A DNA stretch of 6,055 nucleotides from Escherichia coli (GTDB lineage Bacteria; Pseudomonadota; Gammaproteobacteria; Enterobacterales; Enterobacteriaceae), in assembly GCF_048403405.1 (NCBI RefSeq), contig NZ_CP183132.1; one strand, 5' to 3'. Below the pieces are notes generated by a model, which was not told the DNA's origin, searched no databases, and saw only the letters and a program-made list of their open reading frames with translations. A program made the position numbers and the translations under genes. Shown piece after piece: positions 1,616 through 6,055 of this stretch (positions are counted from its first letter, which is position 1; every line of letters begins with the position of its first letter).

Positions 1616-3170
1616 GTTTCATGCCAGGGGAAAAGGTGGTGGCAGTGGTCCGGTTGATTACCTGCTGGGAAGGGAGCGTAACCGGGAAGGGGCAACGGTG
1701 CTTCAGGGGAATCCGGAAGAGGTCCGGGAACTCATCGATGCCACGCCATTTGCGAAGAAATACACGTCAGGTGTTCTGTCGTTCGCGGAGAAGGAGCTGC
1801 CGCCTGGAGGGCGTGAAAAAGTGATGGCGAGCTTTGAGCGTGTACTGATGCCCGGTCTCGAGAAAAATCAGTACAGCATCCTGTGGGTGGAGCACCAGGA
1901 CAAGGGACGGCTTGAGCTGAATTTTGTCATTCCGAACATGGAGCTACAGACCGGAAAACGCCTCCAGCCGTACTACGACCGGGCAGACAGGCCGAGAATT
2001 GATGCCTGGCAGACGCTGGTGAATCACCATTACGGTCTGCATGACCCCAACGCCCCGGAGAACCGCCGGACGCTGACCCTTCCTGATAACCTGCCGGAAA
2101 CGAAACAGGCGCTTGCTGAGGGCGTCACACGCGGGATAGACGCGCTTTACCATGCCGGAGAGATAAAAGGCCGTCAGGATGTGATTCAGGCGCTCACAGA
2201 GGCGGGGCTTGAAGTGGTCAGGGTGACGCGAAGCAGTATCAGCATTGCAGACCCGAACGGCGGGAGGAATATCAGACTGAAAGGAGCGTTTTATGAGCAA
2301 TCTTTTACAGACGGGCGCGGAGTTCGAGAAAAAGCTGAAAGAGAGAGCCGAATCTACAGAGAAAATGCTGAACGACGAGTTCAGGAAGCTCGAAGAATCT
2401 GTAAACAGGGAACTGACCTCAAACGAATCTTTAATCAGGAACGCTATCAACGACCATACAACAGCCCTGAAAGAACTGCTGGAGAGGTATCAGAAAACGA
2501 CCGTCGATACGATGGACGCGCACTGGAAAACCGTACTGAAAATGAGCGTGAAACGCTGGCTGTGGCTGATTATCGTCTCAGTACTGATGTTTGCCACGAC
2601 CGGGAGTCTGCTGTGGTACCAGGGCATGAAGATAAACGCGAATATGAATATTCTCCGCGAGCAGAAAGAGAGTCTGGAGAAGCTGAACGCGAAGACATGG
2701 GGCGTGCGTTATCACGAGGACAGCAACGGACGTTTTCTGGTGTTGCCGAAGGGGATGAAAGCCGAAACGAACTGGACGAAGGACAACGGCAAACTGAACG
2801 CAGTGAGACTGGTGCAGGAGTGACAGAGCATGACGGAGCTGGAAAGACATTTGCTGAACGCATTAGAGCAACTGCAACAGGACTATATGCAGCGGCTGAA
2901 CGAATGGGAGAACGCCTTCGTGGAATTGCAGAAAATGTTTTCGCTTACGCAACGGGACAACGCGATGCTGAACGGGCGAGTCATGCAGTTGAGTCAGCAG
3001 GTGCAGCACTTGAGCGAGCGGACAGAACGCTTGAGCCAGTTATACAGCGAGAACAGGAGATAAGGGATGAACGGCTGATGCAGGAACGCGAACATGAGTT
3101 ATCTCTGGAGCGGGAGCGTCAGCCGGAAATCCAGGAGCGGACACTGGATGGCCCTTCGCTGGGATGGTGA
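1605..3170 (+). CDS. mbeA: MbeA relaxase (MOB-HEN family), 521 aa
   Basis: N-terminus MIVKFHARGKGGGSGPVDYLLG... contains the catalytic Tyr19 and the HEN motif (H97, E104, N106 in ...WVEHQDKGRLELNFVIPN...) described for ColE1 MbeA. SD agggggcg lies 5-6 nt upstream of ATG 1605. The longer 537-aa ORF from 1557 is an upstream extension running through the end of mbeC. Confidence 0.9.
   Translation: MIVKFHARGKGGGSGPVDYLLGRERNREGATVLQGNPEEVRELIDATPFAKKYTSGVLSFAEKELPPGGREKVMASFERVLMPGLEKNQYSILWVEHQDKGRLELNFVIPNMELQTGKRLQPYYDRADRPRIDAWQTLVNHHYGLHDPNAPENRRTLTLPDNLPETKQALAEGVTRGIDALYHAGEIKGRQDVIQALTEAGLEVVRVTRSSISIADPNGGRNIRLKGAFYEQSFTDGRGVREKAERESRIYRENAERRVQEARRICKQGTDLKRIFNQERYQRPYNSPERTAGEVSENDRRYDGRALENRTENERETLAVADYRLSTDVCHDRESAVVPGHEDKREYEYSPRAERESGEAEREDMGRALSRGQQRTFSGVAEGDESRNELDEGQRQTERSETGAGVTEHDGAGKTFAERIRATATGLYAAAERMGERLRGIAENVFAYATGQRDAERASHAVESAGAALERADRTLEPVIQREQEIRDERLMQEREHELSLERERQPEIQERTLDGPSLGW
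2293..2823 (+). CDS. mbeB: MbeB mobilization protein (176 aa), nested in a different frame inside mbeA
   Basis: ORF with a good SD (aaggag, 6 nt upstream of ATG 2293) and one hydrophobic segment (WLWLIIVSVLMFATTGSLLWY). The nested position inside mbeA matches the ColE1 mbe operon. Confidence 0.8.
   Translation: MSNLLQTGAEFEKKLKERAESTEKMLNDEFRKLEESVNRELTSNESLIRNAINDHTTALKELLERYQKTTVDTMDAHWKTVLKMSVKRWLWLIIVSVLMFATTGSLLWYQGMKINANMNILREQKESLEKLNAKTWGVRYHEDSNGRFLVLPKGMKAETNWTKDNGKLNAVRLVQE
2830..3063 (+). CDS. mbeD: MbeD mobilization/entry-exclusion protein (77 aa), nested inside the 3' part of mbeA
   Basis: ORF immediately after mbeB, with SD aggag about 9 nt upstream of ATG 2830; its position matches mbeD of the ColE1 family. 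Product inferred from gene order and overlap, not from recalled protein sequence. Confidence 0.65.
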   Translation: MTELERHLLNALEQLQQDYMQRLNEWENAFVELQKMFSLTQRDNAMLNGRVMQLSQQVQHLSERTERLSQLYSENRR

Positions 3171-3250: not shown

Positions 3251-3346
3251 GTTAAAATTTATCAGGTGCGATCGCGGCAGTTTTTCGGGTGGTTTGTTGC
3301 CATTTTTACCTGTCTGCTGCCGTGATCGCACCGAACGCGTTTTGGC

Positions 3347-3375
3347 GGTGCGTACAATGCGACGTTATGGTAAAT
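3347..3375 (+). other. XerC/XerD recombination core: GGTGCGTACAA (XerC arm) - TGCGACG (central region) - TTATGGTAAAT (XerD arm)
   Basis: Seen in sequence. Both 11-bp arms are identical to those I recall for ColE1 cer; the central region is different and 7 bp long here. Confidence 0.75.
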
Positions 3376-3465
3376 GGAGCGGATTTTCAGGAAGGAGTGA
3401 TACTAACAACTCGAACACTGTGCAAATAATGATTTTTTTAAAATATCGGTAACGATAATAAATTA

Positions 3466-3503
3466 TTTCGTTTTACGCCGGTAATAAATATAATGTAGTT
3501 TCA
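3466..3503 (+). promoter_or_regulatory. Candidate sigma70 promoter for the cargo operon (-10 TATAAT at 3489-3494; weak -35; AT-rich upstream)
   Basis: A perfect TATAAT hexamer lies about 50 nt upstream of ATG 3544 in an AT-rich tract (taataaattatttcgttttacgccggtaataaatataatg). No good -35 at 17-bp spacing; a second TATATA at 3505-3510 is also possible. Confidence 0.3.
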
Positions 3504-3543
3504 GTATATAAAAAAATATATGAGGTGTCTTGTGGGAGCTTTC

Positions 3544-4596
3544 ATGAATCTTCAACAACGTATAAATAAACTACCACAATTATCATCCAGTTTTTCATTT
3601 GGAAAAGATATTGATAATATTCATTCATTTATCTTTAACGAAACTTCTAAAGATAAAATTGAAGATTTACTAAGAAAATGGGTGTCAGGCAATCAGCCCT
3701 GTGTATTTGGTAAATTGGCAAGCAAGAAAATTAAAGGGCTTGATTTCCATTTATCTATTGTAAATAGCCCCCAACTATATAATGATGATGGTCATTTGTT
3801 TGATTTTTTGCGTAATGAAAGAGTTCGTTTTAAAGAACGCGCAAGAAGAGGAGAGGTCAGTGCGCATCTCATTTATTTTATTCATCCACAACTTGCCTTT
3901 GCTCGTCCATCAGAAGAGTTAGTGGACATACAAAAATATATTTGTTCGCTGCATATGCCAGAGTGCTATCCAATAAAAGAGGATGTTATTTATACTGAAA
4001 GCGTACCATTTCAGGATAAAGATGGGCTAAAAATATATAAGGCTGGTGTTAATGTTTTTTACTCTTCTGCTCATAGAACAAGAAATCATGATAGAAGAAT
4101 ACCAGGGGGAATACTTATTTCTGTAAATGCCCCGGGGCATTTTATGAGGCTGGCGATAGAAAAAGGTTTCTATAAAGATCAAGAACAAGCGTTAGCGGAT
4201 ATTCGTAACATGACTATTCAGTCTGTTGGTAAGGGTGGGTATTCACATCCGGAAGGGATTTCTACAACATGGCATTCAGAATCTAATTTGGATCGTTTTG
4301 GATGCCCAGTGCACACCGGTAATAGTTCTTATTACAGCGGTTTTTATCATACTGATGTATTAATTCCAGGAGAATTAACTAAGGATGAAAGATTGCTCCA
4401 TGAAATAGAAAATAGTGATCCAATGATCTTCAACTGGAATGTATTGTTTTATGTTTCATTAGAAGAGTTTCCTATAGATGATCCTTATTATGGAGAGTTT
4501 ATTGGTATTCCTGTAGATGATGCATCTATGTTTTTTAACTCCTTTCAACCAAGGAAATTTGAAAACAAACCCCTTTATGAGAAAGAGGATGATTAA
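3544..4596 (+). CDS. Hypothetical soluble protein, 350 aa, family not recognised (first gene of the AT-rich cargo operon)
   Basis: Long ORF (track 3520-4596) in AT-rich DNA. ATG 3544 is preferred over ATG 3520 because of the SD gggag 5 nt upstream. No signal peptide or hydrophobic helices evident. Conserved-looking segments include NAPGHFMRLAIEKGFY and DRFGCPVHTGNSSYYSGFYHTDVLIPGE. Confidence 0.75.
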   Translation: MNLQQRINKLPQLSSSFSFGKDIDNIHSFIFNETSKDKIEDLLRKWVSGNQPCVFGKLASKKIKGLDFHLSIVNSPQLYNDDGHLFDFLRNERVRFKERARRGEVSAHLIYFIHPQLAFARPSEELVDIQKYICSLHMPECYPIKEDVIYTESVPFQDKDGLKIYKAGVNVFYSSAHRTRNHDRRIPGGILISVNAPGHFMRLAIEKGFYKDQEQALADIRNMTIQSVGKGGYSHPEGISTTWHSESNLDRFGCPVHTGNSSYYSGFYHTDVLIPGELTKDERLLHEIENSDPMIFNWNVLFYVSLEEFPIDDPYYGEFIGIPVDDASMFFNSFQPRKFENKPLYEKEDD

Positions 4597-4597
4597 T

Positions 4598-5464
4598 ATG
4601 ATTAAAGGAATGCTTTTTGCTTTTTTAGCAGCGTTCTCATGGGGGGCAGCTATCGTAATGAGCAAAAAAGGAGTTGAAGAACTAGATGCCGGAGGGGTGT
4701 TTTTCTGGCAGATTTGTAGTGCAGTAATACTATCTTGGATAGTTCTTTTTATAAAAAGAAAAAAACTCCCATTAAACTCAAAAGCGATACTTGCTTATGC
4801 GACAGGCGTTTTTGAACCATTCTTAGCGTATACTTTTACACTCTACGGACTTTATTTTATTTCAGCAGGAAGCGCATCAATTATTTTTTCACTTGAATCA
4901 GTGTTTATATTGGTGTTGTCTGTTCTTATTTGCTCAGTTAAAATTAATTCCCCGCAATATTTTATATTGTTCCTTATAGGTGCAATTGTTGGCAGTATTT
5001 TGGTAGCCTTGCCAGACATCAGTAATGGATCGAATAATATTGTTGGATATTGTCTTGTTGTTGCCGGTGTGTTATCGGCAGCATTTTATGTTGTTATATC
5101 GTCTCGCCTTATTAAATCGTTTGAGCCTATCACATTATTGAGCGGACAGTTGACATTCTCCCTTATACTGTCATCGCTCTTTATTTTTATATCTAAATCA
5201 TCAATTTATCTTCCGTTGGAATCCGTGATTATTGTTTTTTCATCTGGAATATTACAATATTTTTTAGCTTTTTGTTTTTACTTGAACTCCTTGCGTTGGC
5301 TCCCAGTTCATTTGGCAGGGATAATGTTGTACTTTATTCCGCTAGTTGCATTATTTTTGTCATGGTTGTTTTTGGATGAACAATTCACATTCTTACAGGG
5401 GGTAGGATTTATTGTAACTGTGCTAAGTGTATATTTTCTTAACAGAAAATACTCAGAGGAGTAA
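4598..5464 (+). CDS. DMT-superfamily (EamA-like) integral membrane transporter, 288 aa, about 10 predicted TM helices
   Basis: About ten hydrophobic segments of 18-23 residues in a 5+5 arrangement, with an N-terminal LFAFLAAFSWGAAIVMSKKG typical of EamA-domain proteins. Start ATG 4598 has SD aagagga 8 nt upstream and lies 2 nt after the stop of the upstream gene; the track ORF from 4517 is an N-terminal over-extension. Confidence 0.8.
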   Translation: MIKGMLFAFLAAFSWGAAIVMSKKGVEELDAGGVFFWQICSAVILSWIVLFIKRKKLPLNSKAILAYATGVFEPFLAYTFTLYGLYFISAGSASIIFSLESVFILVLSVLICSVKINSPQYFILFLIGAIVGSILVALPDISNGSNNIVGYCLVVAGVLSAAFYVVISSRLIKSFEPITLLSGQLTFSLILSSLFIFISKSSIYLPLESVIIVFSSGILQYFLAFCFYLNSLRWLPVHLAGIMLYFIPLVALFLSWLFLDEQFTFLQGVGFIVTVLSVYFLNRKYSEE

Positions 5465-5633
5465 CATTCTGTTCAGGATTGCCCCCCGGCCTCCATCGAT
5501 ACCGTGCCAAATGCACGTAAAAAACGGGAGCGTTTCTGGTGTCGGAATGTAACCAAGGGGGTCAGAGGCGCGCTAAAACGCTCTCAGGGGAGTCAAATAG
5601 AGACGTTTGTAACAAAAAGATCAAAGGATCCTC

Positions 5634-5662
5634 TTGAGATCCTTTTTTTCTGCGCGTAATCT
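5634..5662 (+). promoter_or_regulatory. RNA II promoter, second copy of 3-31 in the terminal overlap
   Basis: Identical sequence at offset 5631. This copy shows the true context on the circle: the promoter lies about 170 bp downstream of the cargo transporter gene. Confidence 0.6.
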
Positions 5663-5668
5663 GCTGCC

Positions 5669-5775
5669 TGTAAACGAAAAAACCGCCTTGCAGGGCGGTT
5701 TGATCGAAGGTTAAGTCAGCTTGCAGACTGCTTAACCAGGTAACTGTCTTATGCGAGACGAGTCACCAAAATTGT
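5669..5775 (-). ncRNA. RNAI: RNA I, second copy of 38-144 in the terminal overlap
   Basis: Identical sequence at offset 5631. Confidence 0.7.
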
Positions 5776-6055
5776 TCTTCTAGTGTAGCCGCACTCCGGC
5801 AGCCACTTCAAGTACTCTCTAAATATCTCGCACATGACTTTTACCAATGGCTGCTGCCAGTGGCGCTTTGTGGTGTCTTTTCCGGGTTGGACCCAAGAGA
5901 ACAGTTACCGGAGAAGGCGCAGCAGTCGGGCTGAACGGGGGGTTCCTGCATACAGCCCAGCCCGGAGCGAACTGCCTAAGTCGCCCCGAGATACCAGAAG
6001 ACGTGAGCTATGAGAAAGCGCCACGTGTCCCGTAAGGGAGAAAGGCGGAAAAGGT
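5670..6055 (+). ncRNA. RNAII: RNA II, 5' part, second copy of 39-424 truncated by the window end
   Basis: Identical sequence at offset 5631. Confidence 0.65.

Follow-up and report, generated by a model that had tools for sequence, protein, structure and literature searches.

The 6,055-nucleotide stretch of Escherichia coli DNA analysed here (hereafter the window) carries a two-gene cargo operon, ending in an EamA/DMT transporter gene, that points along the same strand into RNA II, the primer RNA of a ColE1-type plasmid. We consider it probable that no dedicated terminator separates this operon from RNA II, that the intervening spacer is built of three parts, one of them a palindrome kept for its GATC sites, that the cargo occupies an ancestral accessory slot, and that read-through is a tolerated property of the plasmid family rather than a specific regulatory device. 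The first part of the spacer (from 5463 or 5473 to 5603) would be a non-coding relic whose left end is a degenerate ColE1-type origin of transfer (oriT) repeat minus its nic side; in the second, sequence common to ColE1-type replicons would begin at about 5614; and the third (5623-5649) would be a family-conserved GATC palindrome with a run of seven T (T7) lying over the -35 hexamer. Dam sites would maintain the palindrome, with hemimethylated GATC near the origin being bound by SeqA and re-replication thereby delayed. The slot between a cer-like site and the primer promoter, facing RNA II, would represent the ancestral layout of ColE1/ColD-type colicin plasmids, within which a mobile two-gene cassette took the place of the colicin D operon. 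A fraction of the RNA polymerase that transcribes the cargo, possibly joined by some from the mobilization genes and cer-like site further upstream, would probably enter the primer region.

Terminator search between the cargo operon and RNA II

The window comprises the circular 5,631-bp plasmid pJJ1886-3 and a 424-bp wrap-around, such that positions 1-424 recur at 5632-6055. The transporter gene (4598-5464, + strand; Pfam PF00892, E = 4.6e-44) ends with the stop codon TAA at 5462-5464, 169 bp before the -35 box of the RNA II promoter (5634-5662, + strand), which is formed by TTGAGA (5634-5639), a 17-nt spacer and the -10 box TAATCT (5657-5662). A prior sequence-only reading had ended the transporter gene at 5464, started the -35 box at 5634 on the same strand and labelled it a second copy; the open reading frame, the promoter sequence and the terminal repeat bear this out, the label being right because the circular plasmid is read past its own start. 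The entire promoter stretch (-35, spacer and -10) is identical in pMB1-type and ColD-type relatives. By analogy with pMB1 and ColE1, we infer an RNA II start near 5670, in keeping with an RNA I 3' end at 5674. Rfam model RF00106 matched the antisense RNA I gene (5774-5674, - strand) over its full length (56.5 bits, gathering score 47, E = 1.1e-8); together with a convergent primer promoter upstream of RNA I, this identifies the replicon as ColE1-type.

Terminators were sought using a consensus scan, a d'Aubenton-Carafa-type discriminant score (d, with an approximate threshold of 0) and folding compared with shuffled sequences (z). Within 5465-5622, the consensus scan returned no intrinsic-terminator-like site, and the best candidate scored d = -48.9. 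Two + strand sites in the whole plasmid exceeded d = 0, namely a hairpin over the -35 box (d = +3.0) and a hairpin within the transporter coding sequence (5059-5083, followed by TTTTATGTTG; d = +10.1, dG = -13.9). The latter, approximately 380 nt upstream of the transporter stop codon, is the strongest terminator-like hairpin on the + strand, and its function is doubtful because the sequence is translated. The palindrome and T7 that form the -35 hairpin are the only terminator-like element between the transporter stop codon and the RNA II start. The earlier claim that the cargo is co-directional with RNA II and is separated from it by no strong terminator was therefore upheld by gene strands and d scores, with prediction up to the RNA II start yielding a single, marginal site. 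Its companion claim, that the spacer lacks a GC-rich hairpin with a T-run, holds for 5465-5622 but not at the right limit, where the palindrome and T7 had been overlooked. No promoter pointing into RNA II was detected within the spacer at nine or more of 12 matches, the overall scan being at chance level (9 sites versus 8.3 expected).

Rho might instead end cargo transcripts in the C-rich untranslated stretch past the stop codon, in which case little transcription would reach the primer promoter. We regard this as unlikely: whilst 158 nt of untranslated RNA follow the cargo stop codon, and a C-rich, G-poor stretch at 5475-5510 (+ strand) bears a weak rut-like signature by its C/G ratio (1.35-1.5, with 14 YC dimers per 78 nt, across 5430-5540; peaking at 1.5 in 78-nt windows that begin at 5430-5460), the signal reaches only about the 90th to 95th percentile of the plasmid (1.32 and 1.53, respectively), and G content climbs sharply past 5490, where C/G drops to 0.56-0.78.

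The GATC palindrome over the -35 box

The palindrome reads AAAGGATCCTCTTGAGATCCTTT at 5623-5645 and then TTTTCTGCGC on the + strand (core stem 5626-5642, T7 at 5643-5649), overlaps the -35 box and has a mirror-image site on the - strand in the consensus scan. Its + strand stem has eight pairs, three of them G-C, with a dG of -5.2 kcal/mol for the GGAUCC/GAUCC core and -10.1 once the A-U pairs are added; 20 of 200 shuffled sequences fold equally well (z = -1.5). Although a U-run lies directly 3' of the stem, the score of this hairpin is marginal compared with that of the RNA I terminator (- strand, hairpin 5701-5680 followed by a T-run; d = +16.5). The palindrome is symmetrical and therefore terminator-like on the - strand as well (nine pairs, dG -11.1, z = -2.3). 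The family consensus, GGATCTTCTTGAGATCC followed by T7, scores d = +11.5. In the window, C5631 replaces the consensus T (GGATCT to GGATCC, a new BamHI site), weakening the stem and lowering d from +11.5 to +3.0; the same variant was found in one other sampled relative, the unrelated-looking M19 plasmid C.

To place these features in the family, 16 replicons were sampled at even steps down the BLAST ranking, 13 of them independent and informative on orientation. The palindrome is kept in 15 of the 16 and is followed by T7 in 10, with a further five carrying it without a full T-run; the remaining replicon has neither, but possesses a separate, proper terminator after its upstream gene. Three GATC sites (5619-5622, 5627-5630 and 5638-5641) flank the -35 box in the window, and relatives with both palindrome and T7 contain two to four. 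The first of these sites falls within 5614-5622, the left boundary of conservation among ColE1-type replicons as delineated by family alignments: at least 5,000 ColE1-type records align to 5604-5800 from query positions 11-24, equivalent to 5614-5627 of the window, at the left arm of the palindrome.

Conservation is stronger for the palindrome than for the T-run, which makes the GATC sites a likelier target of selection than termination. Conservation of the palindrome across these sequences is best explained by its Dam methylation sites, the terminator-like shape probably being secondary. A recent preprint relates, citing Patnaik, Merlin and Polisky 1990, that ColE1-like plasmids keep a conserved origin-proximal pair of Dam sites which, when hemimethylated, are bound by SeqA so that re-replication is delayed (bioRxiv 10.1101/2025.02.19.639193).

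A competing explanation, which we hold to be possible but doubtful, is that the palindrome and T7 act as an efficient two-way terminator, protecting the primer promoter against transcription arriving from upstream and the cargo against RNA I read-through. The - strand hairpin fits such a role, as does the high-scoring consensus, conserved in 10 of the 16 relatives, and located directly after colicin lysis genes, yet the window's own version combines its low d with only three G-C pairs, and the fully extended stem consumes three of the seven U. Moreover, the colicin S4 plasmid (ColS4) and Kp307-P3 keep the palindrome without a T-run (d = -33 and -59, respectively) despite a lysis gene that abuts it, which suggests that the GATC sites, and not termination, are under selection.

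A probably ancestral slot for co-directional cargo

Read-through into RNA II is evidently tolerated in the family, because ColS4 and Kp307-P3 manage without the T-run. In ColS4, the lysis gene is co-directional with RNA II and its stop codon falls in the palindrome's left arm. The colicin D plasmid of the same replicon cluster as pJJ1886-3 likewise carries its colicin-immunity-lysis operon on the RNA II strand, with the lysis gene ending 10 nt before the palindrome, and several further relatives retain a remnant of a lysis gene 3' end at the palindrome-adjacent position. The nearest annotated upstream gene was co-directional with RNA II in seven of the 13 independent informative relatives, revealing no orientation rule. 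As judged from these sequences, co-directional cargo without a real terminator is common and evidently tolerated, without being a rule. The layout of pJJ1886-3 is ordinary because colicin D and S4 plasmids carry the colicin operon in the same position and orientation, with 0-10 nt left before the palindrome, and on this comparison it is not peculiar to the present cargo.

Homology to the colicin D plasmid runs from 5632/1 to 3375, that is, from the primer promoter round to the end of the cer-like site, and defines an accessory slot at approximately 3376-5613. The backbone homology stops exactly at 3375, and the cargo therefore starts directly after the recombination site. ColD-type plasmids are 83% identical to the window over 2.5 kb of the origin region, and a paper on kanamycin-resistance plasmids (PMC5841774), from which the name pJJ1886-3 is taken, reports the RNA I/II region to be 96.7% identical to that of the colicin D plasmid pColD-157. 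The cargo region (3544-5464) has a GC content of 28-41%, compared with 50-66% for the backbone. A cargo-less ancestor, with cer joined straight to the 131-bp module described below, was not found among related records; shorter records considered for this role proved to be truncated linear assemblies, and a 6,665-bp record has fragmented DMT annotations. We also observed that the 7-mer TTCAGGA is common to both cargo junctions, with an estimated chance probability of about 5%.

Origin of the 131-bp spacer module

The bulk of the spacer is a non-coding, plasmid-only module of 131 bp (5473-5603) with no Rfam match and no promoter or terminator signal. The 169-bp spacer as a whole occurs in approximately 144-149 plasmid records and on no E. 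coli chromosome. The module was found on three backbone types: ColE1-type, IncF and Rep_1 rolling-circle plasmids. The IncF copy is 95% identical, its left edge abutting an IS1 end and its right flank differing in sequence, whilst the copy on a 2,395-bp Rep_1 plasmid is 84% identical and differs by indels of 2 nt and 18 nt, which exclude a coding role. Copies of the module lie at 2165-2290 of record L002 and 3001-3130 of record L004. The aph(3')-Ia kanamycin-resistance plasmids of the NZ_CP039864.1 type (5,310 bp) were rejected as an independent context, since they are pJJ1886-3 with 3827-5474 replaced; they retain the cassette upstream region and approximately the first 94 codons of cargo gene 1, with the resistance gene similarly oriented.

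Coding and structural roles were also considered. A small protein was rejected, as the 51-codon open reading frame at 5504-5659 crosses the module boundary and variants carry the 2-nt and 18-nt indels. A search of 241 nt gave no Rfam match to a structured RNA at E <= 10, and neither strand of the module folded better than shuffles, whether treated as RNA or DNA (z -1.0 to -1.7). Scanning the genome collection with the module core recovered the same plasmid only, and a text search of papers found no occurrence of the module sequence.

A motif search traced the module through its copy on the plasmid Col(MP18), which is 84% identical to that of the window (E = 4e-22) and follows without a break on a more complete oriT-like sequence. 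At its left end, this copy agrees with the oriT repeat of the window itself (915-940) at approximately 23 of 26 positions, and alignment through it exposes a degenerate ColE1-type oriT inverted repeat, AACATTCTGTTCAGGATTGCCCCCCGGCCTCC, at about 5463-5494 of the window, with the nic-proximal half missing. Neither the nic site nor nic-proximal sequence is present at 5463-5494, where the end of the DMT gene fills those positions, and for this reason we did not classify the repeat as an oriT. Our reading is that the spacer would be a truncated relic of an oriT-flanking region, gained by recombination among small mobilizable plasmids.

That the module is functional, for instance as a single-strand priming signal on the transferred strand or as an accessory oriT element, seems hardly probable to us. 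It is confined to plasmids, spans three backbone types and adjoins oriT-like sequence in a rolling-circle plasmid; a core of approximately 65 bp (5500-5563) is well conserved at 84% overall identity, and the orientation of the oriT implies that the module would enter the recipient about 1 kb after the nick. These traits are countered by the shuffle-level folding, the missing Rfam match, the narrow distribution (about 150 records, nearly all one lineage) and the loss of the nic side in the window, and no structure supporting a single-strand promoter or priming signal was found.

Two minor observations concern the left portion of the module. A motif just past the transporter stop codon is similar in otherwise unrelated contexts (CAGGGCTGCG at 2161 of record L030, CAGGGACTGCACCC just after 5962 of record L033 and CAGGATTGCC at 5474 of the window); it resembles the oriT repeat and may tentatively be taken for a recurrent recombination junction. 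The C-run at 5482-5487 has six C in the window and eight in relatives of approximately 5,873 bp (around 1570 of record L003), reflecting length variation or sequencing error.

Read-through and plasmid copy number

From the sequence, it is plausible that cargo transcription runs on into the primer region, because the sole intrinsic barrier is marginal and the Rho-type signal modest. In thermodynamic predictions, 5'-extended RNA II keeps the three stem-loops targeted by RNA I (mean pair probability 0.91-0.95, versus 0.95 for the native 110 nt), and extended transcripts could therefore bind RNA I. Candidate outcomes are varied: read-through may increase priming, may merely titrate RNA I or may occlude the primer promoter.

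The sequence-only reading had proposed that cargo transcription could raise RNA II relative to RNA I and thereby couple cargo expression to copy number. The implied direction, a higher copy number, is not the one to which the accessible literature points: strong transcription reportedly lowered plasmid copy number and stability (Stueber and Bujard 1982, in the account given by PMC3061898), and more highly transcribed ColE1-type plasmids have lower within-cell replication fitness (bioRxiv 10.1101/2025.02.19.639193). A coupling in which cargo transcripts enter the primer region, raise functional RNA II or titrate RNA I, and so lift copy number with cargo expression is in our judgement decidedly unlikely. 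It draws on the lack of a strong terminator, on a local hairpin weaker than the family consensus and on the predicted persistence of stem-loops I-III; set against this are the family-wide geometry, which denotes no cargo-specific adaptation, the mixed orientation of upstream genes in relatives, the literature above and the potential of polymerases crossing the primer promoter to occlude it. More improbable still is a conserved gene-dosage amplifier, in which accessory operons of ColE1/ColD-type plasmids (the SOS-induced colicin operon in ancestors, the cassette here) would leak through the palindrome, 5'-extended RNA II would pair with RNA I and induction would transiently raise copy number, with C5631 tuning the effect upward.

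The explanation that we favour, tolerated read-through across a spacer without a dedicated terminator, has several points weighing against it. The d score re-implements the 1990 formula on modern energy parameters, which leaves its zero point approximate, and the A-U-extended stem (dG -10.1) followed by four U could terminate better than the score implies. Rho-dependent termination is possible in the 158-nt untranslated stretch, given a C/G of up to 1.5. The relic origin of the module is drawn from sequence similarity, and its conserved core may have a function. The family sample is neither random nor large, and the occurrence of read-through is itself something that we infer.

Were cargo transcription to change copy number, the expression of accessory genes on very common small plasmids would feed back on their dosage, and such an effect, if true, would bear on plasmid burden and persistence. 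For sequence analysis, terminator searches near ColE1-type origins must take in the -35 palindrome.

Plasmid backbone and cargo genes

Many complete circular records match the 5,631-bp unit at 100% identity; they come from E. coli, Salmonella and Klebsiella, and NC_022662 of strain JJ1886 is among them. The plasmid pJJ1886-3 also occurs unchanged in Shigella. The genes mobC and mbeA, the latter with mbeB and mbeD nested within it, lie on the + strand, and rop and RNA I are the only genes on the - strand. Nearly all plasmid genes are also oriented in the direction of the unidirectional replication fork, which, given established ColE1 biology, could alone favour the orientation of the cargo. At approximately 3345-3375 (+ strand) lies what we take, from its XerC/XerD boxes, to be a cer-like site, with the core GGTGCGTACAA...TTATGGTAAAT. 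Just upstream of this core is a 16-nt inverted repeat (3265-3332; 94% complementary, arms 36 nt apart). Some RefSeq records of ColE1-type plasmids annotate a short coding sequence as a 'replication initiation protein' on the strand opposite RNA II, adjoining or overlapping RNA I/RNA II (L010, 1716-1853; L014, 261-410; L015, 1235-1393); this annotation is probably spurious because ColE1-type replicons need no such protein.

Cargo gene 1 (3544-4596, + strand, from the RefSeq-annotated start; coding sequence 1,053 nt, with alternative upstream starts at 3520 and 3535) encodes a 350-aa protein for which no sequence match was found in Pfam, NCBIfam, PADLOC or PDB, and its 96 detected homologs are all 'hypothetical' and without Pfam domains. 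The transporter gene starts 1 nt past the gene 1 stop, on which basis we regard the two as an operon. An EamA gene adjoins the gene 1 homolog in every context examined, comprising Pseudomonas, Algicola, a Replicase-type plasmid, toxin-antitoxin plasmids and a chromosomal-looking site. In a 7,565-bp contig of a 'Pseudomonas sp.' assembly (NZ_JAHBDQ010000047.1), the cargo-to-RNA I region is 100% identical over the 800 bp read; the DMT gene is apparently present twice, so the contig probably represents a circular plasmid whose assembly ran beyond its starting point, and it may be a contaminant.

A likeness of cargo gene 1 to heme-dependent N-hydroxylases is a lead rather than a finding. Cys53 and an HDRR motif are invariant in its family, and in AglA heme is bound by Cys44 together with arginine/lysine salt bridges (PMC12866846). 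Membership of the YqcI/YcgG family is unsupported by sequence: 42 members of the gene 1 family gave no relevant Pfam match at E <= 1, and a PDB profile search returned chance matches only.

Comparison with known systems

The layout described here is normal for the plasmid family and no new mechanism is indicated. The plasmid itself, its type of replicon and its GATC-rich primer promoter are already established, as are the place and direction of colicin operons, and the idea that upstream transcription disturbs ColE1-type replication is decades old. The vectors of Stueber and Bujard 1982, as described in PMC3061898, resemble pJJ1886-3 in that transcription of plasmid genes would act on the replication region or copy number; the geometry here may differ from that of both the 1982 vectors and the plasmids of the bioRxiv study, and from the 1982 constructs promoter strength may differ too.

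Like the RNA I terminator, the -35 hairpin is a stem-loop with an immediate U-run, but its core has 5-6 bp with three G-C pairs and a dG of -5.2, whereas the RNA I terminator has eight pairs, a dG of -15.8 and z = -4.4. The primer promoter matches the pMB1/pBR322 type, with identical -35, spacer and -10 and three GATC sites flanking the -35 box. In pBR322-type vectors the upstream co-directional gene is presumably Tn3 bla, with its own hairpin terminator of similar design, and one relative (L017) shows the Tn3 end that adjoins the pMB1 junction; the cargo of pJJ1886-3, in contrast, has no terminator of its own.

Colicin D plasmids (pColD-157 and pO177C3; replicon cluster 2401) share with pJJ1886-3 the same replicon, accessory slot, operon orientation and palindrome with T7 over the -35 box. 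In pJJ1886-3, the colicin D-immunity-lysis operon is replaced by the low-GC two-gene cassette and the putative 131-bp relic, 158 nt rather than 10 nt separate the stop codon from the palindrome, and C5631 (GGATCC) weakens the stem.
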